A program made the translations under genes and the position numbers. Below the pieces are notes generated by a model. That model made no database searches and was not told where the DNA came from. It saw nothing but the letters and a program-made list of their open reading frames with translations. Positions 6,805-39,586 of a stretch of DNA of 64,000 nt are shown here, one piece after another. This DNA comes from Kiritimatiellia bacterium. GTDB lineage: Bacteria; Verrucomicrobiota; Kiritimatiellia; CAIQIC01; Lenti-01. Within the stretch, counting starts at the first letter, position 1, and each line of letters starts with the position of its first letter. The stretch covers positions 12,628 to 76,627 of the forward strand of contig JAFXQI010000027.1 in NCBI GenBank assembly GCA_017527155.1. The letters are read 5' to 3'.

Positions 6805-6839
6805 TTTGGGGCTTGAAGATTGGTCATGGCGGGGGCGGG

Positions 6840-9871: not shown

Positions 9872-10522
9872 ATGCACATGAAACACAGCAACTTCCTCGC
9901 CTGCCTGCTGGCCCTCGCGACCGTCGCGGTCGCGCCCTCCGCGTTGGCCGGTGACCACCCCTTGTTCAGCATCGGCCTCGGCGGACAGTACTGGCTCGTC
10001 AAGGATGCCAAGGATGTCCTCGACGAAAACGGCCTGTGGGGCGGGAACATCCTCTTCCGCATCCAGCCCGTCGAATACATCGGAATCGACCTGCGGGCCG
10101 GTGCGTCCGGAGCCTGGGACACCGAATCCTGGCATGGTCCCCGCGGACGCAAGTACGAAGAGACCGCGACGTTCATGTGCTGCCCGGTCGAGGCCGGCCT
10201 GGTCCTGATCATCCCGATCGGCGACCGGTTCCAGATCTACGGCGGAGGCGGGGTCGGCTACTACTATTACGACATCGACATCAAGACCACCTCCCACCGG
10301 CACGGCCACTCCTACCGATCCGAATGGCACGACCACATCGACCTCGAGGACGACGTGGGCTGGTATGCGCTCGGGGGCCTGAAGATTTCCCTGGCGCCCC
10401 ACTTCGCGCTGTTCGGCGAAGCCCGCTACACCGGTACCGAAACCCGCTTCGAGGATGCCGACGACATCAAGATCGATTGCAGCGGCGTTGCCTTCCAGGC
10501 CGGCTTCATGTTCGATTTCTGA
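9872..10522 (+). CDS. Outer-membrane beta-barrel protein (OmpA-like / porin family)
   Basis: Signal peptide MHMKHSNFLACLLALATVAVAPSALA, alternating amphipathic strands, and a C-terminal GFMFDF with terminal Phe. Confidence 0.7.
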   Translation: MHMKHSNFLACLLALATVAVAPSALAGDHPLFSIGLGGQYWLVKDAKDVLDENGLWGGNILFRIQPVEYIGIDLRAGASGAWDTESWHGPRGRKYEETATFMCCPVEAGLVLIIPIGDRFQIYGGGGVGYYYYDIDIKTTSHRHGHSYRSEWHDHIDLEDDVGWYALGGLKISLAPHFALFGEARYTGTETRFEDADDIKIDCSGVAFQAGFMFDF

Positions 10523-10585
10523 GTGACCCGACCATCCGCGCAGGCAACGGCTCCGCCCCCCGGGCGGGGCCGTTTCCGTGCCCCT

Positions 10586-11521: not shown

Positions 11522-11641
11522 GGGGGGAAGGATGGAGGAAAACGATGGGGAATGCAAGGAGTTTTCTGGAATCTCTCATGATGGGAAGGGAGGGTGCATT
11601 TTGTGGTGGGGGGGGATGGCGGTTTCTGGTAGAGTCGGGGC

Positions 11642-12166: not shown

Positions 12167-13395
12167 GGGCGTTCCGGTTTTTCCCTGGCCTGTTGCTGGC
12201 CTCCGCGCTGCTGCTGGCGCCCCCCGCGGCGCGGGCGTGGAGCGGCAAGCACCACTACACGATCAACCGCGCGGCGATCTCGGCGGCGCCGCAGGAGATG
12301 GCGTCGGCGGGCTGGAAGTGGTTCGCCCAGCCGATGGCGTTCCCGGGCATCTACCCCGACCTCTGGAAGGGCGCCGACCCGGAGGAGGGTCCCCGCCACT
12401 ACTTCGAGCCGGACCGTCTCCCCCGCCATTTCGACCTCCAGACCCTGACGCGCGACGAGGCGGCGGAATTGAAACGCTTCCGCCTCTCGGCGGCGGACCT
12501 GGGCGAGGCCCCGTGGGTCATCGCGGACCTCGCGGACCGCATGACGGACGGCATGCGCAAGGGCGACTGGCTGGACGCCGCGCGCGCCGGCGCGACCCTC
12601 GGCCACTACGTCGGGGACATCCACGTCGCCCTGCACTGCACGAAGAACTTCAACGGCCAGGAAACGCGCCAGCACGGCGTGCACACCCGCATCGAGAGCG
12701 ACATGGCCAAGGCGTTCATCCGCCCCGAGGACCTGGAACCGCCGCCCGCCGAGTACCTCCCGGACGTCTTCCATGCGACCCTCTCGTGGATCGCCGACTC
12801 CTACGCGCTGGTTCCCGTATGGCTCGAAGCCGACATCCGCGCGACCGCCGCCGCCGGCGACCGCACCGACACCGAAGACTACTACACCGAACTCTGGGCC
12901 CTGCTCGGCGACTCCGTCAAGGACCGCCAGGCGCAGGCCATCGGCCACCTCGCGTCCATCTGGTACACCGCGTGGGTGGATGCCGGGCGCCCGGCGATCC
13001 CGCGGCGCGACTTCGACGAACTGCCCACCGCGTCGATCTTCTCCGGCGTGGAAATCCCGACCGACGGCGAGGAAGCGGCGAAGCAGACGCGCAAGAAGCC
13101 GCGCGACCCGTCGGCGGAGAAGTACGACCTGATCATCCGCGCGGTGATCGCCGCCATCGCCCTCCTCGTGATGGGCCAGACCCTGGTGCGGAACATCCGC
13201 AAGGGCGGCCGGCGCGGCGGCGGCGGCGGCAACTGGCCCCGCGGCGGCGGGAACGGCGGCGGCAAGCGCAACAACGGCGGCGGTGGCGGCACTCCCTCCG
13301 GCAATTCCGGCAACTCCGGCAACCGCCGCCGCAACAACCACGGCGGCAACCCCTCGGCGGCGCGCGCCGCGGCCCGCACCGCGCGCCGGCCATGA
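12163..13395 (+). CDS. Secreted S1/P1 nuclease / zinc-dependent phospholipase C-like protein with a Gly/Asn/Arg-rich C-terminal tail
   Basis: Signal peptide MRAFRFFPGLLLASALLLAPPAARAWS followed by WSGKHHYTINRAAI...HYVGDIHVALHCT. A 4-bp start/stop overlap on each side suggests an operon with the GNAT gene and tlyA. Confidence 0.6.
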   Translation: MRAFRFFPGLLLASALLLAPPAARAWSGKHHYTINRAAISAAPQEMASAGWKWFAQPMAFPGIYPDLWKGADPEEGPRHYFEPDRLPRHFDLQTLTRDEAAELKRFRLSAADLGEAPWVIADLADRMTDGMRKGDWLDAARAGATLGHYVGDIHVALHCTKNFNGQETRQHGVHTRIESDMAKAFIRPEDLEPPPAEYLPDVFHATLSWIADSYALVPVWLEADIRATAAAGDRTDTEDYYTELWALLGDSVKDRQAQAIGHLASIWYTAWVDAGRPAIPRRDFDELPTASIFSGVEIPTDGEEAAKQTRKKPRDPSAEKYDLIIRAVIAAIALLVMGQTLVRNIRKGGRRGGGGGNWPRGGGNGGGKRNNGGGGGTPSGNSGNSGNRRRNNHGGNPSAARAAARTARRP

Positions 13396-14144
13396 AGAAG
13401 CGCCGCCTGGACGTGCTGGTCGCCGCGCGCGGCCTCGCCGAGAGCCGCGAAAAGGCCCAGCGGCTCATCCTCGCCGGCGAAGTGCTCGTCGACGACGCGC
13501 CCGCCGGCAAGCCCGGCCACGAATATCCCGAGGACTGCGCCATCCGCGTCCGGCATCCCGAACGCTACGTCGGGCGCGGCGGACTCAAGCTCGACGGCGC
13601 CTTCGAGTCGTTCGCGGGGTTCGACCCGACGGGGGTGGTTTGCGCCGACGTCGGCGCCAGCACCGGCGGCTTCACCGACTGCCTCCTCCAGCACGGCGCG
13701 GCCAAGGTGTACGCCATCGACGTCGGCCACGGCCTGTTGCATCCGCGCATCGCCAACGACCCGCGCGTCGTCGTCATGGATGGCGTCAACGCCCGCAACC
13801 TCCAGGCCGCCGACCTGCCCGAAGCCGTCGATTGCGCCGTCACCGACGTCTCGTTCATCTCCCTCAAACTCATCCTTCCCGCCATCGACCGCATCCTGCG
13901 TCCCGGCGGCCAGGTCGTCGCCCTCATCAAGCCCCAGTTCGAAGCCGGACGCGAAGACGTCGGCCGCGGCGGCGTCGTTCGCGACGAAGCCGTCCGAGCC
14001 CGCGTCGTCGAGGAAATCCGCGCTTTCGGGACGGGAGAGGTCGGCTGGGAGTGGCTTGCCTGCCGCGAATCGCCCATCAAGGGGCCCGCGGGCAACGTGG
14101 AGTTCTTGAGCTGGTGGAGGAAGAAGGAGGGGGGGGCCAACTAG
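13392..14144 (+). CDS. tlyA: TlyA family rRNA (cytidine-2'-O)-methyltransferase
   Basis: S4 domain N-terminus (RLDVLVAARGLAESREKAQRLI) plus FtsJ-like MTase (CADVGASTGGFTDCLLQHGAAKVYAIDVGHG). The conserved tlyA-nadK order is kept. Confidence 0.85.
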   Translation: MKKRRLDVLVAARGLAESREKAQRLILAGEVLVDDAPAGKPGHEYPEDCAIRVRHPERYVGRGGLKLDGAFESFAGFDPTGVVCADVGASTGGFTDCLLQHGAAKVYAIDVGHGLLHPRIANDPRVVVMDGVNARNLQAADLPEAVDCAVTDVSFISLKLILPAIDRILRPGGQVVALIKPQFEAGREDVGRGGVVRDEAVRARVVEEIRAFGTGEVGWEWLACRESPIKGPAGNVEFLSWWRKKEGGAN

Positions 14145-14185
14145 ATATCTAGATATCTAGATATCTAGATTTCTAGGTATCTAGG
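14141..14185. repeat. (CTAGATAT)3-CTAGATTTCTAGGTATCTAGG palindromic repeat overlapping the tlyA TAG stop. It places stops in all six frames.
   Basis: Direct reading. CTAG is otherwise rare in this GC-rich DNA. Related TCTAGATATCTAG copies lie at 42013-42050 and 60024-60040, each at a TAG stop. Confidence 0.7.
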
Positions 14186-16619: not shown

Positions 16620-17257
16620 CGGGCGCCGGCCTCCGCGCGGCGGGCGGCGAGGGGCGGGACGATGGCGTAGGCGAGGCCGAGGACCGCCATCAGCGCCGCC
16701 ATGCACACGACGATGCGGACGCTGCCGAGGTGCGCCGTCAGGTAGAAGCCCGTCAGGAAGGTCCCGAAGATGCTGCCCACCGCGTTCCAGGCGTAGAGGT
16801 TGCCGATGGCGCGGCCGGTGTTGGAGGGGCAGCGGTCGATGGCCAGCTTGGCCACCATCGGGCTGATCGTGCCGAGGACGATGGTCGGCAGCAGGAACAC
16901 CCACGACATGTGGATCAGGATGCGCAGCGGCCAGTTCAGGGACATCAGCCAGAGCGCGCGGCCCGCCCACGCGTTCAGGGCCAGGATCGCCAGGCACGCG
17001 GCGGCGCAGGCGAAGAACATCTTCGAGATGCGGCGGGGGAGCGGTCCGGGGCGGTCGGCGAGGCGGCCGCCGATGGCATTGCCGATGCTCATGCCGGCGA
17101 GGATGACGCCCATGACGCCCGTCCACGTGTAGAGGGAGGAGCCGAGGAAGCGCGCGATGAGGCGGCTGGCCACCAGCTCGACGGTCATCATGCCGGCGCC
17201 CGTCAGGAAAACGGTGGCGTTGAGTTCGAAGGTGCGGTGGGATGCGGAGGATTTCAT
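16616..17257 (-). CDS. Polytopic membrane protein (MFS-like N-terminal module commonly fused to spermidine synthase domains)
   Basis: 213 aa with 6 hydrophobic helices. There is a 4-bp overlap with the downstream aminopropyltransferase gene. Confidence 0.6.
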   Translation of the reverse strand: MKSSASHRTFELNATVFLTGAGMMTVELVASRLIARFLGSSLYTWTGVMGVILAGMSIGNAIGGRLADRPGPLPRRISKMFFACAAACLAILALNAWAGRALWLMSLNWPLRILIHMSWVFLLPTIVLGTISPMVAKLAIDRCPSNTGRAIGNLYAWNAVGSIFGTFLTGFYLTAHLGSVRIVVCMAALMAVLGLAYAIVPPLAARRAEAGAR

Positions 17258-17370
17258 GGTGGGGGAGTATAGGCGGTCGCGGGGCGCGGCGGAAGCGGAA
17301 AGTGGGGATCGCCGAGGCGAAAGCGGGGAATGGGTTGCGGAAACGGGACGGGGAGTGTATCACGGAGGAC

Positions 17371-18810
17371 ATGGATTCCCCTACCCTTCCAGAAGATGCA
17401 GAAGACACGATCGTGGCGCCGGCGACTCCGCCCGGCGAAGGGGGGATTGCGGTCGTCCGCATTTCCGGTCCGGAGGCGCTCCCCCTGGCGGACCGGCTGT
17501 TCCGCCCCCGTGGCGGTCCCCTGCCCTCCCGGACGCCGGAGAGGACGTTCCGGTTCGGACACGTCCTTTCGGGACCCGGCGGGGCCGTCCTCGACGAGGC
17601 CCTCCTGCTCGTCTTCCGCGCGCCGCGGTCCTACACCGGCGAGGATTCCGTCGAAATCCAGTGCCACGGATCGCCCCGCACCGTGCAGGCCATCGTGCAG
17701 GCCGTCCTCGACGGCGGGGCCCGCATGGCCGAGCCGGGGGAATTCACGAAACGTTCGTTCTTGAACGGCAAAATGGATTTGACCCAGGCCGAAGCCGTCG
17801 GCGACCTCATCCACGCCCGGAGCGAACGCGCCGCGCGCCTGGCCGCCGCCCAGCTCGGCGATGCCCTGGGCCACCGCATCCGCGGACTGTACGACGACCT
17901 GGTCCGCCTTTCCGCCGACACCGAGGCCATGCTGGATTTTCCCGACGACGAGCTGCCGCAGGAAGTGCCCGCCGAACTGCTGGGGCGGCTCCGCGGGACC
18001 ATGGATAGGCTCGAAGCGCTGCTCGCGACGTGGCACGAGGGGCGCGTTCTCCGGGACGGCCTCCGGATCACCATCGCAGGGACGCCGAACACCGGGAAAT
18101 CCACGTTGCTGAATCTGCTCTGCGGGGAAGGCAAAGCAATTGTATCTCCTTATCCCGGAACGACCAGGGACATCATAGAGGTCGAGACGAGCCTCCATGG
18201 GTACCCCATCCGGCTCCAAGATACCGCCGGGTTGCGGGAGGCCCCGGACCCCGTGGAACGGGAAGGCATCCGGCGGGCCCGCGAAGCGGTCGAGGCGGCC
18301 GACCTGCTGGTCTGCCTGGTGGACGCCTCGAAGCCGCTGTCGGAGGAGGAGGTCGCATTCCTTTCGGGACGCGATCCCGCCACGACCCTCTGCCTGGCCA
18401 ACAAGGCGGACCTGGGCGACGGCTCGTCCGGGTTCCGGGTGGGAGGGCACGTTTTCCATGCCGTGTCGCTGGTGGACCCGGAAGCGCGCGAGCCGGTGGT
18501 CGGGATGATCCTGCGGAAGGCGGGGCTGGAACCGGATGACGGGGCCCCCTTCCCCATCCAGAGAGCCGCCGGGACGTCCGCCGAGTCCGGCGAGGTCGCG
18601 GTGTCGGCGCGCCACGGAAAGGCCCTGCGCGAGGCCTTGGAGGAGCTCCGCAAGGCGGAGGGACGGCTGGAAACCGGACGGGAGGAAGACTGGCTGCCGG
18701 CCGCCATGGGACTCCGGGAGGCGGCCGTGCGGATGGCCACCATCCTCGGGCGGCAATGGGACGAAGATACGCTGGACGCGGTGTTCTCGCGGTTCTGCGT
18801 GGGGAAATGA
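17371..18810 (+). CDS. mnmE: tRNA modification GTPase MnmE
   Basis: GIAVVRISG...TIAGTPNTGKSTLLN...DTAGLRE...C-terminal CVGK motif. Confidence 0.9.
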   Translation: MDSPTLPEDAEDTIVAPATPPGEGGIAVVRISGPEALPLADRLFRPRGGPLPSRTPERTFRFGHVLSGPGGAVLDEALLLVFRAPRSYTGEDSVEIQCHGSPRTVQAIVQAVLDGGARMAEPGEFTKRSFLNGKMDLTQAEAVGDLIHARSERAARLAAAQLGDALGHRIRGLYDDLVRLSADTEAMLDFPDDELPQEVPAELLGRLRGTMDRLEALLATWHEGRVLRDGLRITIAGTPNTGKSTLLNLLCGEGKAIVSPYPGTTRDIIEVETSLHGYPIRLQDTAGLREAPDPVEREGIRRAREAVEAADLLVCLVDASKPLSEEEVAFLSGRDPATTLCLANKADLGDGSSGFRVGGHVFHAVSLVDPEAREPVVGMILRKAGLEPDDGAPFPIQRAAGTSAESGEVAVSARHGKALREALEELRKAEGRLETGREEDWLPAAMGLREAAVRMATILGRQWDEDTLDAVFSRFCVGK

Positions 18811-18879
18811 GCGCGGGCGCCCCCTTGTTCCTCCCCCGGACGGCCGAAGCAACCACCCTCTTTGCAAAGGAAGAAACAG

Positions 18880-20826
18880 ATGAATACCCCAGAAAAGAAG
18901 ACCTTCCAGCTGATCGTCATCGGGGCCGGCCATGCGGGCTGCGAGGCGGCGCTGGCGGCGGCGCGGATGGGCGTGGATACGGCGCTGGTGACCATGAAGG
19001 CGGAAAACGCCGCCAAGATGTCGTGCAACCCCTCCATCGGCGGCATCGCGAAGTCCCACATGGTGTTCGAGCTGGACGCCTTGGGCGGGGAGATGGCGAG
19101 GAACACCGACTGCACGGGCATCCAGTTCCGGGTGCTGAACCGCCGCAAGGGGCCCGCCGTGCAGGCCAACCGGGCGCAGTGCGACAAGCCGGCGTATTCC
19201 GCGCGCATGGCGGAGGTGCTGCGGCGGCAGGAGCACCTGGCGGTCGTGGAGGACACCGTGCGGGAAATCCTCGTGGAAAACGGCCGCGCGGCAGGCGTCC
19301 TGGGCATCCGGTCGGGGCGGCTGGAGGCGCGGTGCGTGGTCCTGACGGCGGGGACGTTCCTCAACGGAAAAATCTTCGTCGGCAAGCACGCCGTGGATGC
19401 CGGGCGGCTGGGCGAGCCCGCGGCGCTGGAGCTGAGCGACAAGTTGCGGGATCTGGGGTTCCACGTGGAACGTCTCAAGACCGGCACCCCGCCGCGCCTG
19501 CACAAGGATTCCATCGACTACGCGGCCATGGCCGTGGAGCCAGGCGAGACCGATCCCGTGCCGTTCTTTTCCTGGGAGGGCCGGGAGGGATTGTTCCACG
19601 TGGAACAACCGGGGAATCCATCCGGCGGCGATGACGCCGCGGAACGCGCCGGCGAGTCGATGGTTCCACGTGGAACATCGGGTTCCGCGCTCTTCCCGTG
19701 GGTTCCGGGGAGCGACCCCATTCCCTGCCACCTGACGCACACGAACGCGGGGACGGTCGGCATCATCTCCGCCCACCTCGCGGATTCGGCGCTCTACGGT
19801 GGGCTGATCGACGCCCCGGGCGCGCGGTACTGTCCCTCCATCGAGGACAAGGTGGTGAAGTTTTCCTCCCACACGGACCACCACGTCTTCGTGGAGCCGG
19901 AGGGGCGGTCGGTCTTGGAGGTGTATCCGAACGGGACGTCGAACAGCCTTCCCCTGGAGGTCCAGCTGCGGATGATCCGGTCGATCCGCGGCCTGGAGCG
20001 CGCGGAGTTCCTCGCCCCCGGGTATGCCATCGAGTACGACTACTTCGACCCGACGCAGCTCAAGCCGACGCTGGAGACGAAGCGGGTGGAGGGCCTGTAT
20101 TTCGCCGGACAGGTCAACGGCACGACCGGCTACGAGGAGGCGGCCGCCCAGGGCGTGATGGCCGGCATCAACGCGGCGTTGGCCGTCCTCGGCAAAGGGG
20201 AGCTGGTCTTCGCCCGGCACGAGGCGTACATCGGGGTGATGATCGACGACCTGGTGACGAAGGGGGTCACGGAGCCCTACCGGATGTTCACCTCCCGCGC
20301 GGAGCACCGCCTGCTCCTCCGGCAGGACAACGCGGTGTTCCGCCTGGCCGGTGCCGCGGAGAGGGTGGGGATCGTCCCCGCCGCCCGGTTGCGGACCATC
20401 CGGGAGCGGGAGGGGCAGATCCGCGCCGAGCTCGCCCGGCTGGACCGGGAACGCGCCCCCGACGGGGCGACCCTCGCGCAGTGGCTGCGCCGCCCGGAAA
20501 TCGGATACGATGCGATGCCCGGGCATCGCGGCGACCTGCCGCGGATGGTCCGGGAGCAGGTGGAGTTCGAGACGAAGTACGCGGGCTACATCGAGCGGGA
20601 ACTGCGCAATGTAAAAAAGTCACAACACATTGCGGAACAACAGATTCCAGCCGATTTCGACTACCATTCCATCGCCGCCCTCCGCTACGAGTCCCGGGAA
20701 AAGCTCTCCGCGATCCGCCCCCGCGACCTCGGCCAGGCCTCCCGCGTATCGGGCGTCACCCCCGCCGACATCGCCATCCTCTCGGTATGGCTCAAGCGTC
20801 TCGGTGGAGGGGAACGGACCGAGTAG
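18880..20826 (+). CDS. mnmG: tRNA uridine-5-carboxymethylaminomethyl synthesis enzyme MnmG (GidA). It carries a ~40-codon in-frame insertion with two extra copies of a 14-bp palindrome.
   Basis: [61 protein letters not shown] precedes ATG 18880. Confidence 0.9.
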
Positions 20827-20858: not shown

Positions 20859-21332
20859 TCAACCCCGCCGGTCCGGGCGGGTCCAGCGGGCAAGGGTCCG
20901 ATCCAGCCAGCGGAGGGTGGAGGGGAGGCGGGCGGCGTCGAGGGCGCAGGTCCAGAGGACGACGACGTTCCAGCCGGCATCGTGCCAGAGCTGTTCGTTG
21001 CGGGCGTCGCGGCGGACGTTGGTGCGGAATTTCGCGTTCCAGAAGGGGCGGTTGGTTTTCGGGGTCGTGGCGGCGGGACATTCGGTTTCGTGAACGAGCT
21101 TGCGGCCATCCCACGTCCAGCCATGGCGGTGCCAGAAGCATCCGCGGACCTCGATGATGGCCCGGGCGCGCGGGATGACGATGTCGGGGTGGCCCGGCAG
21201 GCGGCGGTCGCAGACGCGGTAGCGCCAGCCGGCGTGCCAGAGGTGGTGGCGGACCAGCCGCTCGGGGCGCGTGTCGCGTCCGTGGATGGCGGCCATCATG
21301 CGGGAGCGGACGGCGGGTGGGACGGTATCCAT
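20859..21332 (-). CDS. vsr: Very short patch repair endonuclease
   Basis: RSRMMAAIHGRDTRPERLVR...GHPDIVI...GCFWHRHG...FWNAKFRTNVRRDARNEQLWHDAGWNVVVLWTCAL aligns with E. coli Vsr motifs. Confidence 0.85.
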   Translation of the reverse strand: MDTVPPAVRSRMMAAIHGRDTRPERLVRHHLWHAGWRYRVCDRRLPGHPDIVIPRARAIIEVRGCFWHRHGWTWDGRKLVHETECPAATTPKTNRPFWNAKFRTNVRRDARNEQLWHDAGWNVVVLWTCALDAARLPSTLRWLDRTLARWTRPDRRG

Positions 21333-21390
21333 GGGTGGGGTTTTACGCCGGGCGGGTCCGGGGCGCAATCCCGATTCGCGTTCGCGGGGC

Positions 21391-23145
21391 TCAGGCGAAG
21401 CCGGAGGCGCGGGTGACAGGGCGGGAGATGCAGGTGCGGAGGGAGGGGATGGAGGTCCAGAGGCGGGCGGTGCGGCGGGTGCGGGTGACGGCGGTGTAGA
21501 GGATTTCGCGGGTCAGGAGGGGGCAGGCGGGGTCGGCAGGGAGGACGATCGCGATGTCGTCGTACTCGGAGCCCTGGCTCTTGTGGATGGTGGTCGCCCA
21601 GGCGGATTCGAGGCCGGTCAGGAGCAGGCGGGGCAGGCTGCGGGGGGGGGAGTCGGGGGTGGCGCCGGGAAGCCAGACGAGGTCGGGGTCGGCGGGCAGG
21701 ATGACGCCGAGGTCGCCGTTGTGGACGTCGAGGGACGGGTCGTTGTGCGTGACCATGACGGGCATGGGGGCCGTCGGGGGCAGCCAGGCGCGGATGGCGG
21801 CGTTGGCGCGGTCGACGCCGAAAGGGCCGCGGCGGACGGCGCAGAGGACGCGGTAGGCGTTGATGCGGGACAGGGCGTCGGCCGGGGTGGCGGCGCGGGA
21901 GAGGGCGTCGAAGCCCGCCAGGACAGCGGCGCGGAAGCCGGGCCAGGCGTCGGGGCCGCGGGAGGCGTCGGCGGGATGGGGGGTGCAGGCGAGGGGGGAG
22001 GACGGGGAAGAGGAGGCCTCCGGGAGGAGAGAAAGGGCGGCGGGGGCGTCGCCGGCGTTGACGGCGGCGGCGAAGAGGGCGATGGGGCCGTCGGCGCCGA
22101 ACCGGTGGCTGGTGGCGAGGCGGGTGAGCGGGTAGCGGCCGGAGTCGCAGAGGTCGCGGAGGATGCGTCCGCGTTCGACGGAGGCCAGCTGGTGGGGGTC
22201 GCCGATGAGGAGGAGCCGGGCGGAGGACGGAAGGGCGTCGAGGACGTGGCCGAAGAGGAGGAGGTCGACCATGCTGGCTTCGTCGATGACCAGCCAGTCG
22301 GCGGGAAGCGGGTTGGCGGCGTCATGGCGGCAGCGGCCGGTGACGGGATTCTGGCCGATGAGATGCTGGAGGGTGGTCGGGGAATCGGGCAGGACGACAC
22401 CGGCGGCGGACAGGCTTTCGGCCATGCGGGCGGCGGCTTTGCCGGTCGGGGCGGCCAGGCGGATGCGGAGGGAGGGATCGGAGCGGAGGGCGAGCTGCAC
22501 GGCGCGGGCGAGGACGTGGGTCTTGCCGGTACCGGGGCCGCCGGTCAGGATGGCGAAGGGGTGCGAGAGGATGGTTTGAAGGGCGGCGAGCTGTTCGGGG
22601 AAGAGCGTGGAGCTTCCAGGGGGACAAGGGGCATCGGTTTGCGGTGCGCCGTGCGGGCGGGCCATGGTGTCGAGGCGGTCGCGGATGCGGCGTTCGCAGC
22701 GGTGGTTGCGGCGGGTGTAGAGGCGGTCGCGGTCGAGGATGAAGGGGGCGAAGGCAGGGGTGTCGGGCGGGGCGACGATGGCGGGGAAGGAGAGGAGGGC
22801 CGCGGTCAGGTCGGGAAGGGAAGGAAAGCGGAAGGCGGCGGCGGCGGGGGGCGCGGCGGGGGCAGGGTCGGAATCGGGGAAGGCGGGGGAGGTTTCGGGG
22901 TCGGAGGCGACGTCCTGGCGGAGGAGGTCGTCGTGGGTGAGGCCGGCGATGCGGTCGAGGGGGAGGCAGACGTCGCCGCCGGCGATGGCGCGCACGGCTT
23001 CGGCGCAGATGCGGGCGACGAGGGCAGCGTCGGCGGGATCGGCGGCGGGGCCGGCCATGCGGCGGACGAGGTCGGCGACGGCGGAGGGGAGGGAGGAGGC
23101 GGTGGAGGGGGATGAGGAGGGGGATGAGGAGGGCTTGGGGAACAT
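21391..23145 (-). CDS. recD: Exodeoxyribonuclease V alpha subunit
   Basis: AILTGGPGTGKTHVLARAV, WLVIDEASMVDLL, LLLIGDPHQLASVE, TIHKSQGSEYDDIAIVL are the SF1 helicase motifs of RecD. Confidence 0.85.
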   Translation of the reverse strand: MFPKPSSSPSSSPSTASSLPSAVADLVRRMAGPAADPADAALVARICAEAVRAIAGGDVCLPLDRIAGLTHDDLLRQDVASDPETSPAFPDSDPAPAAPPAAAAFRFPSLPDLTAALLSFPAIVAPPDTPAFAPFILDRDRLYTRRNHRCERRIRDRLDTMARPHGAPQTDAPCPPGSSTLFPEQLAALQTILSHPFAILTGGPGTGKTHVLARAVQLALRSDPSLRIRLAAPTGKAAARMAESLSAAGVVLPDSPTTLQHLIGQNPVTGRCRHDAANPLPADWLVIDEASMVDLLLFGHVLDALPSSARLLLIGDPHQLASVERGRILRDLCDSGRYPLTRLATSHRFGADGPIALFAAAVNAGDAPAALSLLPEASSSPSSPLACTPHPADASRGPDAWPGFRAAVLAGFDALSRAATPADALSRINAYRVLCAVRRGPFGVDRANAAIRAWLPPTAPMPVMVTHNDPSLDVHNGDLGVILPADPDLVWLPGATPDSPPRSLPRLLLTGLESAWATTIHKSQGSEYDDIAIVLPADPACPLLTREILYTAVTRTRRTARLWTSIPSLRTCISRPVTRASGFA

Positions 23146-23333: not shown

Positions 23334-26300
23334 TCACGGGAGGCCGAGGGCGGTGGCGAGGTCGTCGAGGAGAGGGGCGGAGGGGTGGTCGGTGTAGACG
23401 GCGGTGCGGTGGATGGCGGCGCCGCGGAGGAAGATGTAGCGGATGCCGCCGAAGTGGTCGCTCCAGTCGTATCCGGGGAGGGTGGCGCGGAGGTGGCGGT
23501 GGAGGACGGCGGAATAGATGAGGTACTGGAGGAAGTAGGCGTGGGAGGCCATCTCGTCGCGCAGGCCGGCGGGCGTGAAGGAGGATTCGCGGCGGCCGAG
23601 GGCGTTGGACTTCCAGTCGACGATGTAGTAGCGGCCGGCGTGGCGGAAGAGGAGGTCGAGGTAGCCCATCAGGAAGCCTTTGGGAATGGGGCGGTCCCAA
23701 TGGTCGAGGGTGTGCAGGAAGTGGCGGTGGTCGCTGTCGGCGGATTCGGCGTCCCAATGGGCGTGGAGGATGTCGCGCAGGACGGCGGTGGAGGGGGCGG
23801 CGGCGCGGGTGGAGAAGTCGAATTCCCATTCGCTGGCGCGGTCGGTCCAGGGGATGTCGCGGAGGCGGAAGGCGGGGGCGCCGTCGGGGGGCGCGAGGGG
23901 GAGGTCGAGGGTGGCGCGGACCATCGCGAGGACGGTATCGATGCGGGCGGCGCGCGCGTCGTCGGTGCCGCGCAGGAGGCCGCCGGCGAGGAGGTGTTTG
24001 GCGACGAGGGGGCGGAGGTCGGCGTCGGTAGCGCGGAAGTCGGCGTCTTCGAAGATGTCGTGCCAGCAGTTGCCGATGGCGGTACCGGGAGGGAAGGCGA
24101 AGATGGGGTGCGTGGAAGGGGGCTCGGCGGTGGGCGGGTCGGCGGCGGGGTCGGCGGCGGACGGGGCGGCGTCGTGGTCGCGGGGGTCGGCGGCGGCGGG
24201 GCCGTCGGCGGCCTCGGCGGCGGGGGTGAGGGAGGAGTAGCTGCCGCGGCCGCGGGGCGGCGGGAGGGAGGGGGGCGCGGGCGGGGGGACGAACGGGGCG
24301 GAAGCCGTGGCGGGGAGAGCGGGCGGGGCGTCCGCGCTCCCGACGAGGGCGGGTCGGACGAGGTGGTGGGCACGGGCGCGGTCGAGTAGGGTGGAGAAGG
24401 CGCGGTTGGGGATCTTGGCGCCGTCGGGGGGAGCAAGGACGATGCAACGGTAGGCGGCGCGGGTGAGGCCGACGTAGAGGATGCGCATGTCCTCGGCGAT
24501 GGATTCGCGGTCTTCGGCGGCGGCGGCGTCCGCGGAGGTGCCGATGCGCAGGGTGCCGGCGGCGTCGTGGTAGATGTGCAACGGGGCCCCGGTGTTGCCT
24601 TTTTCGCCTTGCCAGCGCCAGAAGGCGTCGGGCAGGACGGTGACGGGGAATTCGAGGCCCTTGGCGGCGTGGTGGGTGAGGATCTGGACGGCCGCGGAGT
24701 CGGATTCGAGCCGCAGGCAGGCTTCGTCGCCGGCGTCGGGGGCGGCGCGGCGCAGGTACCAGTCGAGGACGGCCGCGGGCTGGGCGGCGGTGGCCCCGGC
24801 ATGGGCGTGGATGAGTTCGGCCAGGTGCAGGATGTTGACGAGGGCGCGTTCGCCGCCGGACGCCGCGGCGATGCGGGGCCGGAAGGCGAGGTCGGCTTCC
24901 ATGCGGGCGAAGGCGGCCAGGAATCCGCGGTCGTGCCAGAGAAGGGTCCACTCGCGGAAGGCGCGGAGGAAGTCGGTCATGGTCGCGGGGGCGCCGGGGT
25001 CGGGGCGGCGGGCGAGGAAGGGATAGCGACTGCGCCCTGCGGGCGAGTGACAAGTGAAAAGTGAAAAGTGAAAAGTGGGCGGTGCGCCCTGCGGGCGGCA
25101 TGCAGGAGGATTTTCCGGGGGGAGGGCGCCGTCGGGGCGGGCGAGGAGGGAGACCTCGGCGGCGGTGAGGCCGAAGAAGGGGGTGAGGAGGGCGGCGCGG
25201 ACGGTCGCGGCGTGGGAGGGATTGGCGAAGGCGGCGAGGAGCAGGCGGAAGGCTTCGGCTTCGGCGGTACGGAAGACGGAATGCTTTTTGTCGAGGACGA
25301 CGGCGGGGATTCCGAGAGCGCGCAGGCGGGCGGCGATGGCGGGGCCCTTGTCCTTGATGCCGGCGCGCACGAGCACGGCGATGTCGCCGGGCGCGAGCGG
25401 GCGGGCGCCGTCTTCGTCGCACAGCTCGGGCCGGGCGGCCAGGAGGGCGGCGATTTCGGCGGCGGTGGCGTCGGTCGCCGCGTCGTCGTCTGGCAGCGTG
25501 GCGAACTGGATGGCGGGCGCGCCGTCGGCGAGGTCGGCCTTGGCGCTGCCGGCGCGGATGGTTCCGGGGTACGGGATGGCGCCGTCGCCGAAGGTCCAGG
25601 CATCGGGACCCGTGCCGCCGGGATCGCGGAAGAGGTCGTTGACGGCGGCGACGAGGCCGGGCGCGGAGCGGTGGTTCTCGCCGAGGGTGTAGCGGCGGTC
25701 GGGCGGGACGGCGGCGGCGGCGGCGCGGTAGGCGTGGATGTCGCCGCCGCGGAAGGCGTAGATGGACTGCTTGGGGTCGCCGATGAAGTAGACGGGCGGG
25801 GAGCCGGGAGCGTCGAGGAAGGCATCGCGGAAGATGGCGTACTGGACGGGGTCGGTGTCCTGGAACTCGTCGACCAGCACCGCCGCGTATTCCTCGCGCA
25901 GGGCCGCCGCGAAGGCGTCGCGCCGCGGCCCGCGCAGGGCGTCGCGCATCCCCAGCAGGATGTCGTCGAAGTCCGGCCGGCGGCGGTCCGGGCGCTCCGC
26001 GTCCCAGAGCGCCTGGAGGTCGAAGGCCACGCGCAGGGCGCACGCGGCGGGCGTGGTGCCGTCGAGGTCCGGGTCGGGTTGGATGCCGGGACGCGAGATG
26101 GTCTTGAGCGCGGAGAGGAGGTCGCCGAAGGCGAATCCGGGCGCGGCCGCTTCCGCGCCGCCCGGGGCGAGGGCGACGTTGCGGCGCCACCAGTCGCGGG
26201 CGGCGGCGGCGAGCTGGGCCTCGCGCACGGCGTCGGGCGGATCGGCGTCGAAGGCGAGGCCGGACTCGAAGGCGTAGCGGTCGAGGGCGCGACTGCAGAA

Positions 26301-26723
26301 GGCATGGATGGTCGAGATCGCGGCGCGGTCGAATTCCGCCAGCGCGGCCTCCACGGCCTGGCGGGCTCGGCGGAGGGTGTCCACGTCCGGCGGCAGGAGC
26401 GAAACGAGGAGGTTCGCCTGGGCGGTCTCGCGTCCGTCGGGGTCGGCCTGGCCGCGGAAGACGTCCTGGAGGGTGCCGAGCAGGCGGCGGAGGCGGTCGC
26501 GGAGTTCGCGCGTCGCGGCTTCGGTGAAGGTCACGACCAGCAGCCGCTCCACGCCGAGCCCCCGCGCCATGAGGAGGCGGGCGTAGAGGTTGCCGATGTT
26601 CCACGTCTTGCCCGTACCCGCCGAGGCCGCGACGAGATGCACGCCGTCGAGCGGAAAGTCGGGGTCCGCGAAGGCTTGCGCGAAGTCCTGGAAGTCCCGG
26701 GGATGGCGGAGGGGCGGGGTCAT
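23334..26723 (-). CDS. recB: Exodeoxyribonuclease V beta subunit (UvrD-like helicase + C-terminal PD-(D/E)xK nuclease). It carries an in-frame ~44-codon insertion of a (GTGAAAA)3 repeat element.
   Basis: LVAASAGTGKTWNIGNLYARLL, VVTFTEAATRELRDR, LVDEFQDTDPVQYAIF, YIVDWKSN nuclease motif. The repeat lies at 25020-25105 in frame. The ORF is continuous over 1,129 codons. Confidence 0.85.
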   Translation of the reverse strand: MTPPLRHPRDFQDFAQAFADPDFPLDGVHLVAASAGTGKTWNIGNLYARLLMARGLGVERLLVVTFTEAATRELRDRLRRLLGTLQDVFRGQADPDGRETAQANLLVSLLPPDVDTLRRARQAVEAALAEFDRAAISTIHAFCSRALDRYAFESGLAFDADPPDAVREAQLAAAARDWWRRNVALAPGGAEAAAPGFAFGDLLSALKTISRPGIQPDPDLDGTTPAACALRVAFDLQALWDAERPDRRRPDFDDILLGMRDALRGPRRDAFAAALREEYAAVLVDEFQDTDPVQYAIFRDAFLDAPGSPPVYFIGDPKQSIYAFRGGDIHAYRAAAAAVPPDRRYTLGENHRSAPGLVAAVNDLFRDPGGTGPDAWTFGDGAIPYPGTIRAGSAKADLADGAPAIQFATLPDDDAATDATAAEIAALLAARPELCDEDGARPLAPGDIAVLVRAGIKDKGPAIAARLRALGIPAVVLDKKHSVFRTAEAEAFRLLLAAFANPSHAATVRAALLTPFFGLTAAEVSLLARPDGALPPENPPACRPQGAPPTFHFSLFTCHSPAGRSRYPFLARRPDPGAPATMTDFLRAFREWTLLWHDRGFLAAFARMEADLAFRPRIAAASGGERALVNILHLAELIHAHAGATAAQPAAVLDWYLRRAAPDAGDEACLRLESDSAAVQILTHHAAKGLEFPVTVLPDAFWRWQGEKGNTGAPLHIYHDAAGTLRIGTSADAAAAEDRESIAEDMRILYVGLTRAAYRCIVLAPPDGAKIPNRAFSTLLDRARAHHLVRPALVGSADAPPALPATASAPFVPPPAPPSLPPPRGRGSYSSLTPAAEAADGPAAADPRDHDAAPSAADPAADPPTAEPPSTHPIFAFPPGTAIGNCWHDIFEDADFRATDADLRPLVAKHLLAGGLLRGTDDARAARIDTVLAMVRATLDLPLAPPDGAPAFRLRDIPWTDRASEWEFDFSTRAAAPSTAVLRDILHAHWDAESADSDHRHFLHTLDHWDRPIPKGFLMGYLDLLFRHAGRYYIVDWKSNALGRRESSFTPAGLRDEMASHAYFLQYLIYSAVLHRHLRATLPGYDWSDHFGGIRYIFLRGAAIHRTAVYTDHPSAPLLDDLATALGLP

Positions 26724-29700
26724 TTCTTCCTCCTGGCGCCGCTCTGGGCCAGATATCCGTCCCAGAAGACATGGGCGGCGGCCGCGAAACGCCCGAGATC
26801 GCCGTCGGTGAGGACGGCGGGGGACGCGGGCCAGAGTGCGATGTCGGCCGCTCGCGTGTCGGGCCGGCCGGGGGCCGGTGGTTCCGCGGTATTGTGCAGT
26901 CGGGGAAACCAGGCGCGGCGGAGAAGGCCCCGGACCTCTTCCGGCGAGGGGAGGGCGGCGGCCTTGGCGATCTGCATGGAAACGGAGGGATGGAACGGAA
27001 TCGCCCCCGGGAAGGGTTCGCAGAGCAGCGCGAGGATGCGGGCGAGGATGGCCGCGGCATCGGCGGGAGGGAGCGGAGGAAGGACTTGGGTGTTCTTCTT
27101 GTCGACGCTGAAAGCGCCGGTTCCGGTGCGGGGCGTTGCGCCGTTGACCGCGATGCTGGCGAGCCGGTAGCCGGCCGCATTGGCCGCCAGATGGCGCACC
27201 CAGTCGGCGGCCTGCCGGAAGGGCTTCTCGATGTGCTTCGTCAGGTTCGGCGCATACCATGCTTCGCCACCGTCCACGGTGTGCCGCCGTACCGCCGCCA
27301 GCCGGCCCGTGATGCGCACCCGGCGCGTGGTTCCGTCGTGCAACAGCACGGGAACGTCCAGATTGACGGGCACGCCGGCTTCCGCGTCGTCCGCGTCCTC
27401 GAGCATGTCGAGGATGAGGTCTTCGCCCGCCACCGGGACCGGACCCGGCGGCCCCTTGTAATCTTTCGCCAGAAGGGGCCGCTCGCAAAATGCCCGGCGG
27501 GTTGGGGTGTCCCACCCTTCCCGGATGGCCTGCGCGGCGGACGCCGGGTCCGGCGACAGCCCGTTCTCCGCGGCGATGCCGCCGCGGCGCTCCGCCTCGG
27601 CCTCGGACATGTCGCGGACGAGCGAGAGATGGACGTCGGAGGCCAGCGAGGGATCCGGTTCGATCGGGTCGTCGGAATCGACGAGGTCGTATCGCGGATC
27701 GGCCACGCCGGCCATCTGTTTCAGGACCGCCTTGGCGGGATCGGCAAACGCCTTCGCCAGCTCGTCCAGCGGAATTTCCGCGCGGTCTTCCGGCAGATAC
27801 GCGAACGCCCCCCCGGCGGCGGGCGCGTCGGCGGCCCCCTCCGCGATGGCGAGCGCGGCGGCGCGGTCGGCCGCGGAGTAGGCGGGAGGGAGGGCCGGGT
27901 CGGTGAAGCGGGCCGGGGAGAAGCCTTGCAGCGGATGGGTGAAGTCGAGGTAGGGCGTCTTGCTCCCCTCCACGGCGAAATGCCCCGCCAGGTAGTCCAT
28001 CAGCGCGCCCGCCAGCGGCGCCGGGGGGACCGCCGCCCCCGAGCGGACGTCGCGGCCGACATGGCTCAGTACCAGCGTTTCGCGCGCGCCGCACACGGCT
28101 TCCAGCAGCGCCAGCGCGTCGTCGTCGCGCGGCGAGGGGTCGGTCCGCTGCGGATGCCGCCCCATCAGGTCGAACGCCGGGCGCGGCTGGAAACGCGGGA
28201 ACCGCCCGTCGGCCAGCCCGCATACCCACGTCAGCCGGCGCGGCGACGGGATTCCCGCCCGCAGCGGCGCGAACAGTACCGCGTCCGGCGTGCGCCGCGG
28301 TCGCGCCCCGGCGGCCTTGGCCAGCTCCGCCACCGCGTCCGCCATCACCCGCCAGCCGTGGCGCGCCGGCTCCCCCGCCATCGCGTCCGCCTCCCGCATC
28401 CGCGCCGCCACCGTCGCCACCGCCTCGCGCAGGGCCGCGACGGACCGGTGGTTCGCGTCCGTCTCCACGAAGAATTCCGCCACCAGCCGCAGCAGCCGGT
28501 CCTGCCACCAATCGGCCGTTCCCGACGCGCCGCACAGCGCGTGCAGGCGTCCCAGCGCCGCGACGTAGCCGCACAGCCGGCCCAGCAGCGACGCGCGCCC
28601 CGCCTCCGCATCGCCCGCCGGCAGCAGTTCACCCAGCGCACCCGCCTCCACCCGGCCGCCGTCCCCCGCGTCCGGACCGCCCAGCGCCGACAGCAGCAGC
28701 CGGTCCAGGCCGCGGCGCCATGTGAAGGCGTAGGGGCCGGGCGGGGGATCCGGCGCCATCGCTTCCGCCGCGTGCGCGTCGTCCAGACCCCACCGGATGT
28801 TCGCCTGCCGCACGAAGTCACGGAGCGTCTGCAGCTCCTCCGCGGCGATCCCGAACGCCGACGCCACCGCCGGCTCCTCCAGCACGTCCAGCACCGCGTC
28901 CGCCTCCATGCGGCCCTCCGCCATCTCCAGCAGCGACAGGAACGATTCCGCGATCGGGTCGTCCGCCGCCCCGCGTCCCAGCAGCGTGCACGGCAGCGCC
29001 GCCTCCGCCTCCGCACCGGCCCCCGAGCCGAATACCGCCTCCGCATGCGGCGCGTACGTCTCCCAGTCCGCGCACAGCACCACCGCATCCCGCGGATGCG
29101 ACCCCGGATGCGCCGCGAACCACGCCAGCAGGCCGTCCCGCACGATCTCCATCTCGCGCCGCGGCGTGCTCGCGCGGTGTACCGCCACCGAGGCGTCCCC
29201 CGCCGGAAGCGGCTTTTCCCGCCCGTCCTCCGCTTTCCTCTCCAGCAACTGCCGCTGCAGGCGCGACAGCACCGTGTCCGCCGCCGCTTCCGGTTCCGGC
29301 AGGTCCTCGTGGCGGCCTTCCAGCCGATCCACCCACTCCGCCAGCAACCCCTGGCATCCCATCGCCAGCGTGCCCAGCAGCGGATGCGCCAGCTGCAGCG
29401 CCTCCTTCATGCCGCCGCCCCCCTCGCGGGCCTCCCGGAGCGCCTTCCGCCAGCGGGGGTCCTCCAGCCAGAACTCCCCGCACGGATTGAACGCGTACGC
29501 CGTCACCGGCAGCACCGCCGCCAGACGGTCGAAGAACGCCACGTACGGCCGCGGCATCGACGAGACCCCGAACACGAACACCGCCCGGTAGCGCGGAATC
29601 CCGTGCGCGAACGCCGCCGACAGGTCCGCCGGCGATCCCTCCAGCCCCTCCACCCGCGCGAACTGCTTCCAGAGCGGCTCCCCGCCCTGCGCCCGCAGAC

Positions 29701-36252: not shown

Positions 36253-37347
36253 TCAGCTCAGGCGGATGGGCATGAGGACGTAGACGAAGCTGACGGTGGA
36301 GCGGATGACGCCGGGGGAGGTGTCGTCGATGAGGTCGAGGTAGACTTCGTCGGTCGTCAGGTTCTTCAAGGGGTCCATCAGGAAGGCCGGGTTGAAGGAG
36401 ATGGTGACGTCCTTGCCGGAGTACTTGACGGCCATGCGTTCGCGGGCTTCGCCGATGTCGGGGGCCGTGGCGAGGATTTCGAGCTGGTCGGCGCCGAAGG
36501 TGAGCTTGACGCCGCTCACCGCGTCGCTGACGAGCTGGGAGGTGCGCCGGATCGCCGTCAGGAAGCTGTCGCGGTCGAGGGTGACGCGCTCGCCGCTGGC
36601 CTGGGGGACGACCTGGCGGAAGTTGGGATAGACGCCTTCGACGAGTTTGCTGGTGACGAGGATGCTGCCGTATTCGAAGGCCGCCAGCTTGGGCGTGGCG
36701 GAGATGCGGATTTCGCCTTCGCTGCCCAGGGTGCGGAGGAGTTCGTCGACGGTCTTGAGCGGGACGATGAGGTCGGCTTCGTCGCTCTCGGGGATGGCGA
36801 GTTCCTGCTCGACGAGGGCCAGGCGGCGGCTGTCGGTGGCGACGGCGCTCAGCCGTCCGCCCTTGAAGCTCAGCAGGACGCCGTTGAGCAGGGTGCGGTT
36901 GGCGTCGGTGCTGGCGGCGTAGCTGGTCAGGCGGAGCATGTTCTTGAAGACGCCCTGGTCGAGGGTGAAGGTCTTGGCGCCGTCGAGGGCGACCTGCGCG
37001 GGGTAGTCCTCGGCCCCGAGGCCGTTGATCTTGAAGTCGCTGCTGCCGGAGTGGATGGAGGCGACGTTCTCGGGGCTGATGTCGAGTTCGGCGGTGTCGA
37101 CGGGCAGTTCGCGCACGACGCCGAAGATGCGCTTGGGCGGCAGGGTGGTGGTGCCGGGTTCGGCGACTTCGGCCTCGATGGCGGTCTTGACGGTGAGGCT
37201 GGTGTCGGTGCCGGTCAGTTCGAGGTGGCCGTCCGCCGCGCGGAAGAGTACGTTGGACAGCACGGGCAGGGGGTTGCGGGTGTTGATCACCGACTGGACC
37301 TGCTGCAGGGCCGTGATGAAGGCGTCCTTGTTGACTTTGATTTTCAT
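36253..37347 (-). CDS. dnaN: DNA polymerase III beta sliding clamp
   Basis: [21 protein letters not shown]... 364 aa with three-domain clamp similarity. It lies directly downstream of dnaA. Confidence 0.9.
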
Positions 37348-37611
37348 GTGCCGTCTCCGGTTGGGATACTGTTGGTTTTCAAAAAGAGTTTTTGATTTCT
37401 CTTATTCTTATGTCCTGTTCACGCTGTGCATATCATCACAACGCCTTGTTTTCAAGGGGCTTTTGCGGTCCCGCGGCTGTTCGCAACAGGCCCCCTCCCC
37501 CCTGTGCGGAATGTGCGCAACCCGGCGTTGTCCACAGGGCGGGGAGGTTTTCGACAGGTTGTGCACCGCCGGTGCACGCGGTTGTCGACAGGGTTGCCGG
37601 GCGCGCGCGCA
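37348..37611. promoter_or_regulatory. Candidate oriC in the dnaA-dnaN intergenic region: an AT-rich unwinding element plus a cluster of high-GC-type DnaA boxes
   Basis: The AT-rich stretch is 37350-37440 (ttggttttcaaaaagagtttttgatttctcttattcttatg). TTGTCCACA, TTTTCGACA, TTGTGCACC and TTGTCGACA fall within 37525-37600. Confidence 0.55.
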
Positions 37612-39009
37612 TCAGTTGGGGGCCGCGACGGTGCCGAGGCGCTGCTCGAGGGAGAGGATGGTCTGGCGCAGGGCGGCGTCGGTCTTCATCTTCTGGCCGA
37701 TGAGGCGGTGGGCGTGCAGGACGGTGGCGTGGTTGCGGCCGAAGGCGTTGCCGATGGCCGGCAGCGACTGGCCCGTCATCTCGCGGCACAGGTACATCGC
37801 CACCTGGCGCGGGAAGGCGATGTTCTGCGGCCGCTGCTTGCTCGTCATGTCGCCGAGGCGGATGTCGTAGTGCTCGGCGACGAGCCGCTGGATGCCCTCG
37901 ATGGTGAGCGCCGTCTGGTTCTCCTGCTCCAGCGTGTCGCGCAGGAGGTACTCGAGGGTTTCCTGCGTGAGCGCCTTCTTGGTGAGCGAGAGGTACGAGG
38001 TCACGCGCAGCAGCGACCCCTCCAGCTTGCGGATGTTCGAGCGGATGTGCTCGGCGATGAAGAAGAGCGCGTCGTCCGGCACCTGCAAATCCATCTGTTC
38101 GCGCTTGCGGCGGAGGATCGCCACGCGCGTTTCGAGGTTGGCCATCTCCATCTCGGTGACGAGGCCCCACTCGAAGCGCGAGACGAGGCGCTTCTGGAGG
38201 TTCGCGATTTCGCTCACCGGCCGGTCGCTCGTCAGGACGATCTGCTTCTGGTTCTCGTAGAGGGTGTTGAAGGTGTGGAAGAACTCCTCCTGGATGCCCT
38301 CCTTGCCGGCGAGGAAATGGATGTCGTCGATCAGCAGCATGTCGATCCCGCGGTACTTCTTGCGGAAGTCCGCGATGGCGTGCTGCTGGATGGCCTGGAT
38401 GTACTCGTTGGTGAACTTCTCGCTGGAGATGTAGCAAACGGTCCCCTTCTTCCCCTTGAGCACCGCGTCGCCCATCGCCTGGATGAGGTGCGTCTTGCCC
38501 AGCCCCGTCCCGCCGTGGATGAAGAGCGGATTGTACGCCCTGCCCGGCGCCTCCACCACCGCCAGCGCCGCCGCGTGCGCGAACGTGTTCGACGGCCCCA
38601 CCACGAAGTTCTCGAACGTGTTCTTCGGGTTCAGCGGACTCCCCACGTTGCAGCTGCGGACCGCGGCCTTGCGCGAGGGGGACTTCGCCGGCGCGGCCGG
38701 CGGCACCCCGCCCTGGAGCCGCTCCTCCGGCATCTCCCGCAGCTGGCGCGAGGCGTCGACCGCGAAGTGGATCGCCGGATTCTCGCACCCCGCCGCCGAG
38801 AGCGCCTTGCGGATGTGGGGCATGAAATTCTCCACCAGCCAATCCTGGTAGAAATCATTGGGCACGGTGAGCGTCAGCTGGCTCTCCCCGAGGTCGTCCC
38901 CGGCGGCGTCGATGACGCCGATCCAGCGCTCGTATATGTCCGGCGACAGCACTTCCGCGAGGAACTCCCGCGCCTTCTTCCAATATTCAATTGCCTGTTT
39001 CTCTTGCAC
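37612..39009 (-). CDS. dnaA: Chromosomal replication initiator DnaA. Start called at GTG 39009; an alternative GTG is at 39072.
   Basis: Domain I ([13 protein letters not shown]), AAA+ Walker A ([10 protein letters not shown]), and the domain IV DNA-binding helix ([16 protein letters not shown]). Confidence 0.9.
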
Positions 39010-39099
39010 GACACAAACCCTGTTACCCGGCGGGCGACGCACGCAACTATCGCACGAAACCCCGCGCGGCACAAACCAAATGGTGACCGGACGCCGATG

Positions 39100-39586
39100 A
39101 CTCCCGCCGTCCGCCGTTCCGTCGCCCCGGAAAAGTTATCAACAGGTTGTTCACACTGCCCATCCTTTCCTTGGCTCCGAAAACGGCCCCGACGATAACG
39201 GCCGACCGCCCCCTTGGCAAGCCCGGGCCGCATCCCGATGGCAAAAACCGAAACGCCACAACATCCAGCGATGCCAAACTGGCACACCCACAACATCCTG
39301 TATCTTGAAAAAACTTCCCGCAAACCGCTTGACAGCACCGCTTCCCCACCTAACTGCTTGATAACAGCCCCCGATAGACCGCGGCTTCCCCGTTTTCCGG
39401 CCCTTTTCCGGCAAGTAATCCACAACGGCCTCCGCTCCGCCGTTCCAACTCCTTGTCCCGTCCGCGCATCCGTCCACGCCGCTTTCCGCCCGCGTTTTTG
39501 GACTTGCAAAACCCGCCCCCCGCGCGCACCTTCCCGCGTGGCGCGACGGTGCGCCTCCAACCACAACGTCCAACAGGGAGAACAAG
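39100..39586. promoter_or_regulatory. Divergent promoter region between dnaA and the rubrerythrin gene, with scattered DnaA-box-like 9-mers
   Basis: TTATCAACA (39135), TTGTTCACA (39146) and TAATCCACA (39414). This could be a second origin cluster or DnaA autoregulation sites. Confidence 0.4.

Follow-up and report, generated by a model that had tools for sequence, protein, structure and literature searches.

The closest described counterparts of the sequences analysed here are parS sites, the loading sites of chromosomal ParABS systems. In Pseudomonas aeruginosa the highest-affinity ParB sites are parS2 and parS3, any one of which suffices for segregation when origin-proximal (PMC4368675). The parS listed for Pseudomonas putida is TGTTCCACGTGGAACA, that of Myxococcus xanthus differs at one base (review, PMC7022226), and a study of 12 genomes, among them that of the verrucomicrobium Akkermansia, reported ParABS homologues in every one. 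Here we describe a 14-bp palindrome, GTTCCACGTGGAAC, which occurs three times within the gene mnmG (gidA) of a Kiritimatiellia bacterium, on a 64,000-nucleotide stretch of assembly GCA_017527155.1 (contig JAFXQI010000027.1, positions 12,628 to 76,627 of the forward strand) which we refer to as the window. Judged by sequence comparison these palindromes are very probably parS sites, forming a small array inside the mnmG open-reading frame (ORF).

Palindromes in mnmG and their conservation as DNA

The three perfect copies of GTTCCACGTGGAAC occupy positions 19458-19471, 19593-19606 and 19663-19676, as an earlier note on this DNA had reported. Their number exceeds a chance expectation of 0.19, none of 100 shuffles reached three copies, and the window contains no further match even at 2 mismatches and, beyond the three mnmG sites, no additional parS-like site even at 3 mismatches. 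The host ORF (18862..20826, + strand, 654 aa) matches solved MnmG/GidA structures (phmmer to PDB chains 2zxh, 3cp2, 3ces and 9hip, E~1e-170). As listed it opens at TTG 18862, the lengths of related proteins making ATG 18880 (MNTPEKK...) the likelier start. Extended to 16 bp, site 1 (GGTTCCACGTGGAACG, 19457..19472) falls in native coding sequence of MnmG, where it is read as GFHVER. Site 2 (TGTTCCACGTGGAACA, 19592..19607) is perfectly palindromic over all 16 bp and is read as (L)FHVE(Q), and site 3 (GGTTCCACGTGGAACA, 19662..19677) is translated as (M)VPRGT, one base shifted from the FHVE frame of copies 1 and 2, just as the frames had first been described. The codons of site 3 are rare in this mnmG (68% GC): GTT makes up 2/47, CCA 5/34, CGT 3/58 and GGA 6/63 of the respective counts. 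Copies 2 and 3 also have common extended flanks, which together form a 24-nt repeat with 88% identity, in agreement with the longer shared flanks noted at the outset.

Copies 2 and 3 lie inside an insert of ~40 residues which is absent from solved MnmG structures. We regard this insert, of ~38-40 residues in the structure alignments, as real because the alignment to the E. coli and Aquifex structures breaks at query residues ~243 to ~285, where the structures have 5-6 residues. The claim that two copies occupy a ~40-codon insertion was therefore correct, as was the claimed difference in length between the PVFSF and THTN blocks, but the absolute counts given for that stretch (63 vs 23 residues) were too high, the correct figures being ~53 residues in the window MnmG and ~15 in E. 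coli. The insert, which holds a hypervariable spacer besides sites 2 and 3, spans about 19588-19710 (+ strand), inside the mnmG segment for a predicted disordered loop (19549..19716, + strand; model residues 224-279). In an AlphaFold model built from 45 sequences (predicted template modelling score, pTM, of 0.81), residues 224-279 have a predicted local distance difference test score (pLDDT) below 50 and no secondary structure, so that the insert, which coincides with the gap in the structures and the variable spacer, is predicted to be disordered. Occupation of such a surface loop would explain why the array is tolerated by mnmG. The GGAAC variant of parS has zero stop codons across three frames on both strands, whereas one frame of the canonical TGTTTCACGTGAAACA contains a TGA. 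As the GGAAC variant is free of stops in all frames, sites and spacers can be added or shifted if the overall frame is restored, and the observed site spacings fit this freedom.

To compare the insert between genomes, we aligned the best 120 relatives (63-99% identity), a few of them named at source as Kiritimatiellae, Opitutae or Verrucomicrobiota metagenome-assembled genomes (MAGs). The insert was present in 120/120 and also in more distant groups, hence the earlier label "lineage-specific" holds only in a loose sense, the insert extending beyond this genome's own lineage. The relatives carry the insert with its palindromes, contrary to the palindrome-free insert which the note had named as the outcome that would speak against it. 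The spacer is hypervariable in both length and sequence, yet FHVE(Q/H) and VPRGT recur, with STWN or a second FHVE found in some relatives where others have VPRGT. At least two intact motifs were present in 105/121 sequences, most of the remaining ones being off by one residue. FHVE, VPRGT and (C)STWN correspond to the three reading frames of TGTTCCACGTGGAACA.

At the nucleotide level, inserts in 13 related loci hold 2-5 sites each, nearly all perfect and in any of the three frames. For example, the inserts of L001, L002 and L081-L088 contain 2-4 perfect 14-mers with all three frames represented, at spacings of 39-135 bp which are often not multiples of three. L082/L083 possess an extra perfect 16-mer ~20 bp past the mnmG stop, and no other copy was found in the flanks of relatives, up to 22 kb. 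The palindrome is thus not frequent elsewhere in the 64-kb window or in the relatives' flanks, so that the random abundance which the note had named as a refuting outcome is not seen over this range. The homologue of site 2 keeps a perfect 14-mer in every related locus examined. Ten clade loci yielded 31 perfect 14-mers, and no copy carried 1-2 mismatches. Across the invariant, codon-degenerate amino-acid columns of the same ten MnmG genes, an identical codon is used in all ten in 24/291 cases (8%), and TTC CAC GTG GAA is the sole run of at least three identical codons across the entire mnmG. In total, 47 perfect 14-mers were found over 14 loci (the window, L001, L002, L023, L081, L082, L084-L088 and L093-L095), in three frames and in intergenic DNA, hence their conservation is independent of coding context. 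As the sites are independent of frame, the spacer is hypervariable, the run of identical codons occurs only at the site and the insert is predicted to be disordered, it is the DNA of the sites, not the encoded peptide, which is maintained by selection. FHVE(Q/H), VPRGT and (C)STWN are what one and the same site yields in its three frames, as passenger peptides.

Beyond the 16-mer, flanking positions +/-3 and +/-4 are complementary in 19 and 22 of the 47 sites, vs ~12 expected, and some sites are 24-bp perfect palindromes, e.g. CCGA-TGTTCCACGTGGAACA-TCGG in L084.

The sites inside and outside the insert differ in their distribution. Every relative examined has insert copies, whereas GFHVER, the translation of copy 1, is confined to the query and the 12 proteins nearest to it (P0001-P0012, at least 83% identity). 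The DNA of copy 1 is found with identical flanks in L087/L088, and in relatives of 75% identity or less the same position shows 4-7 nucleotide mismatches (e.g. GFRMER). By parsimony, this distribution across relatives indicates that the insert sites are ancestral and that copy 1 is a recent gain, apparently an extra site which arose in the native coding sequence of the closest relatives. The palindrome had been proposed to spread from native sequence into the insert; the phylogenetic distribution shows the reverse.

Identity of the sites and competing explanations

With its flanks, copy 2 is TGTTCCACGTGGAACA, identical to parS2/parS3 of P. aeruginosa (PMC4368675). Against the 16-bp palindromic parS consensus TGTTNCACGTGNAACA, copy 2 matches at 16/16 positions, copy 3 at 15/16 and copy 1 at 14/16, and a full-text literature search for TGTTCCACGTGGAACA returned ParABS papers only. 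Among the functions first suggested for the palindromes, a protein-binding site thus appears the correct one, given the match to a validated ParB-binding parS and the nucleotide-level conservation in every frame.

The location is also that of parS, in that the sites are few, clustered and proximal to origin genes, and form the only cluster in 64 kb. The window encodes DnaA and DnaN, which places the site cluster ~18 kb from dnaA-dnaN: the dnaA ORF lies at 37615..39135 (- strand; Pfam Bac_DnaA, Bac_DnaA_C and DnaA_N), with DnaA called as 465 aa on same-species contigs, and the adjoining dnaN (beta clamp) at 36256..37347 or 36256..37401 (- strand; Pfam DNA_pol3_beta, beta_2 and beta_3), its exact protein being found on 23 public contigs. 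In relatives, the distance between mnmG and dnaA is ~5 kb (L084), ~3.4 kb (L088), ~2.5 kb (L094/L096), 113 bp (L095) or 86 bp (L093). Public assemblies of the same species (e.g. GCA_017541755.1) show the genes around dnaA in unchanged order, with no additional sites in that region. With dnaA-dnaN as markers, the cluster would lie in the origin region.

If the palindromes are parS, established knowledge of ParABS suggests how they would work. ParB dimers would recognise each 16-bp palindrome via their helix-turn-helix domains, bind cytidine triphosphate (CTP), close into a clamp and slide onto adjacent DNA, thereby giving rise to a partition complex close to the origin; this complex would be moved by ParA and would in turn load the structural maintenance of chromosomes (SMC) condensin.

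Several observations count against a parS identity. The two mismatches of copy 1 to the 16-mer fall at its outer positions. No ParB or ParA was found by motif expressions in the window, by tblastn in the window and clade loci (with B. subtilis Spo0J/Soj queries), or by Pfam among 20 large window ORFs, which leaves ParB as a presumed cognate reader in this clade. The tblastn probe itself works, as it detected ParB in 51 of 78 control mnmG loci from other phyla. The origin signals are also poor: DnaA-box matches are weak (6 vs 2.1 expected, 3 of them near dnaA at 37528, 39136 and 39416), and cumulative GC skew reaches a maximum around dnaA (~38 kb), where an origin should show a minimum, leaving no clean origin signature. 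Finally, site counts for this genome cover the 64-kb window.

The absence of a ParB gene near mnmG leaves room for another reader, as a conserved perfect palindrome in 2-5 copies would suit any dimeric DNA binder. The sites could then be operators for a transcription factor, or for a ParB paralogue like Noc, controlling an internal promoter or local chromatin. We consider this unlikely and less parsimonious than parS, since the sequence is exactly that of a validated parS, its position is dnaA-adjacent and origin-proximal, the same sequence stands beside parAB in outgroups, and no regulator gene is conserved next to mnmG across loci.

An action in the mnmG mRNA, as a long hairpin controlling translation, stability or RNase III processing, is less probable still. 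The segment 19575-19695 does fold at -66.1 kcal/mol (z = -4.5), copy 2 pairing with copy 3, but two identical palindromes pair automatically, which accounts for the predicted hairpin. There is zero covariation, all 47 sites keeping the same 14-mer, which indicates a sequence-specific and not a shape-specific reading. In loci with 3 or 5 copies some would stay unpaired, further sites are found beyond the transcript body or 5' of the gene, and Rfam gave no match.

A restriction-modification or methylation target cluster, which the CACGTG core (PmlI-type) and a gene for a Vsr very-short-patch repair endonuclease directly 3' of mnmG (20862-21368, - strand) would favour, we regard as highly improbable, although the earlier note had suggested it. 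CACGTG occurs 10 times in the window vs 15 +/- 4 expected and is neither enriched nor avoided, conservation spans 14-16 bp, well past the 6-bp core, and the Pfam scan of 20 large window ORFs found no methyltransferase or restriction genes among the neighbours. The vsr gene itself forms the tail of a recC-recB-recD block (21394-23145, 23334-26720 and 26723-30379, - strand) directly downstream of mnmG and is not found in relatives' mnmG neighbourhoods; no cytosine methyltransferase partner for Vsr was seen in the window. Equally little credit can be given to the insert as a selfish palindromic mobile element in frame (akin to Rickettsia palindromic elements, miniature inverted-repeat transposable elements or repetitive extragenic palindromic sequences), or to functional peptide motifs: the insert does keep the frame, has terminal repeats and is translated on the protein surface, but no dispersed copies, as expected of such elements and of HIP1-type repeats, exist in the 64 kb or the relatives' flanks, its position in MnmG is fixed over deep divergence and only the 14-16 bp sites are kept, with no element body, and a peptide function is ruled out by frame switching, in which the peptide varies with constant DNA, and by rare codons. 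A recombination hotspot, also suggested by the note, need not be assumed, although lineages do differ in insert length and copy number.

Sites in other lineages and the neighbourhood of mnmG

In the control set, canonical parS (at most 1 mismatch, within ~3 kb) was found near mnmG in 42/78 loci, mostly 30-200 bp upstream and sometimes downstream, and 31 of the loci with ParB homologues had parS as well. The exact TGTTCCACGTGGAACA was present in five control loci, with parA-parB within 1-3.5 kb in 4/5. As parS lies near mnmG in so many control loci, the association of parS with mnmG/gidA is general, and the special feature here is the placement of the sites. In Burkholderiales (L015, L016, L020, L026, L027, L034, L042, L048, L049, L051, L055 and L078), for example, the canonical TGTTTCACGTGAAACA occurs within native coding sequence ~1.4 kb into mnmG (about position 4401-4458), where it encodes AVSRET in the four loci translated (L016, L020, L027 and L049), and most of these loci have further sites upstream or downstream of the gene. 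In Rubritalea profundi (L023; Verrucomicrobiae), two perfect 16-mers are located 90-130 bp 5' of mnmG, at 2873 and 2912, and one site (DPAFHVEQVPCW, position 3737) occurs in the same MnmG loop, with no large insert, an arrangement which may represent an intermediate or ancestral state.

A deeper search used a 50%-identity representative library, from which the top 150 MnmG representatives were taken. A parS-frame motif was present in the loop at least once in 19 and at least twice in 14 of these, and loops reached 481 residues vs a median of 73. Examples include P0126 (1041 aa, 4 x STWN), P0155 (814 aa, FHVE + 4 x STWN), P0140 (FHVE + 4 x VPRG) and P0131 (5 x FHVE). At the DNA level, three long-loop loci (GC 51-54%) contained 4-5 sites each, 12/14 being perfect 16-mers and 2/14 one base off. 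In a second clade of 119 clusters, with loops of 82-186 residues, loop sites were always present, numbering 2-3 in 118 clusters and 1 in one. Insert length and copy number vary between lineages, whereas the insert keeps one position in MnmG over deep divergence.

In other lineages MnmG is 790-1170 aa long (proteins P0126, P0128, P0131, P0140, P0155, P0158, P0164 and P0172; genes at L093, 508-2952, L094, 8001-11126, and L095, 1690-4065). The added length is a low-complexity insert in the same loop, of up to 481 residues and with up to five parS, and mnmG frequently abuts dnaA directly. A further locus, L096 (mnmG 5012-7840; P0136), has two TTTCCACGTGGAAA palindromes at 5955 and 6516 in the same loop, translated as VSTWK. 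Each of the two copies has T/A in place of the outer G/C pair, in either half-site; from the sequence, this change may reflect an altered ParB specificity. P0122 is possibly another variant, with CATWH occurring twice at the protein level.

Upstream of mnmG in the window, an ORF at 17242..18810 (+ strand) is mnmE-like by synteny, the gene immediately 5' of mnmG in relatives having TrmE_N, MnmE_helical and MMR_HSR1 domains. The window domain scan also found DnaB at 60504-61940 (- strand). Elsewhere, a 1630 aa ORF at 50599-55488 (- strand) combines DEAD/Helicase_C and UvrD-type helicase domains in a single protein, and five large ORFs with high GC at third codon positions have no Pfam match at E<=1e-5 (5658-6839, 7580-10585, 10589-11575, 12885-14156 on the - strand and 58062-60029 on the + strand).

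Comparison with known systems

Intragenic parS and gidA-linked parS are known in general, and what appears to be new is the translated array in an MnmG loop insert, of which we found no description in the searchable literature. FHVEQ, VPRGT and STWN in MnmG would be translations of a predicted DNA-binding site and not protein features, a caution for motif discovery, for domain annotation and for protein models trained on these sequences. The array could serve as a simple marker of the origin/centromere region in the uncultured gut and rumen MAGs of the group, for locating origins, estimating replication rates and checking assemblies. It is also an unusually clean natural case of overlapping codes, in which the DNA element is invariant in three frames and the translated spacer drifts. 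As MnmG can accommodate as many as ~480 extra residues in a single loop, this loop is a candidate permissive site for MnmG engineering.

Whether the arrangement was itself selected is a more speculative matter. Across a broad group, verrucomicrobial or Kiritimatiellae-like, the surface loop might act as an evolvable cassette dedicated to the centromere, with selection on parS copy number (2-5) driving the expansions from 40 to ~480 residues and the embedding being adaptive, a proposal which we hold to be doubtful. If true, adaptive embedding could tie the centromere to a gene next to dnaA/oriC that the cell cannot lose, or could link the loading of ParB with transcription across the array. Similarly, the apparent symmetric specificity switch of TTTCCACGTGGAAA in one lineage would, if true, point to co-evolution of ParB and parS, and together with the variation in copy number it offers material on such co-evolution and on the coexistence of the ParB clamp with transcription.

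The sites compare most directly with parS1-parS4 of P. aeruginosa, which have the identical 16-bp sequence (parS2/3 being TGTTCCACGTGGAACA, parS1/4 differing at the last base) and likewise form a small cluster of redundant sites, in their case within ~16 kb of oriC. Those of P. aeruginosa are spread over intergenic DNA as well as several genes, whereas here they are packed in the in-frame insert of one gene, and ParB binding has been demonstrated for the former and would be expected for the mnmG sites. A parS inside the coding sequence of B. subtilis spo0J, and other intragenic parS, were reportedly described by Lin & Grossman in 1998 and Livny et al. in 2007. The spo0J site is likewise embedded in an ORF and translated, but intragenic parS of this type fit pre-existing coding sequence, whilst the MnmG sites occupy a dedicated, hypervariable insert, predicted to be disordered, of 40 to ~480 residues with 2-5 sites. 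Burkholderiales, Nitrospirales-type MAGs and Rubritalea share the same neighbourhood, the classic gidA-gidB-parA-parB origin region. There, the parS sites of mnmG/gidA are mostly intergenic or elsewhere in native sequence with parAB adjacent, whereas in the present clade parAB is not adjacent to mnmG and a single loop insert gathers the sites. Finally, Rickettsia palindromic elements are dispersed selfish repeats of ~100-150 bp, inserted in frame in many genes and translated as surface loops. They too are DNA-level elements tolerated in frame with a passenger peptide, but the array in mnmG is found at a single locus and a fixed position, and only its short, putatively protein-binding sites are conserved.

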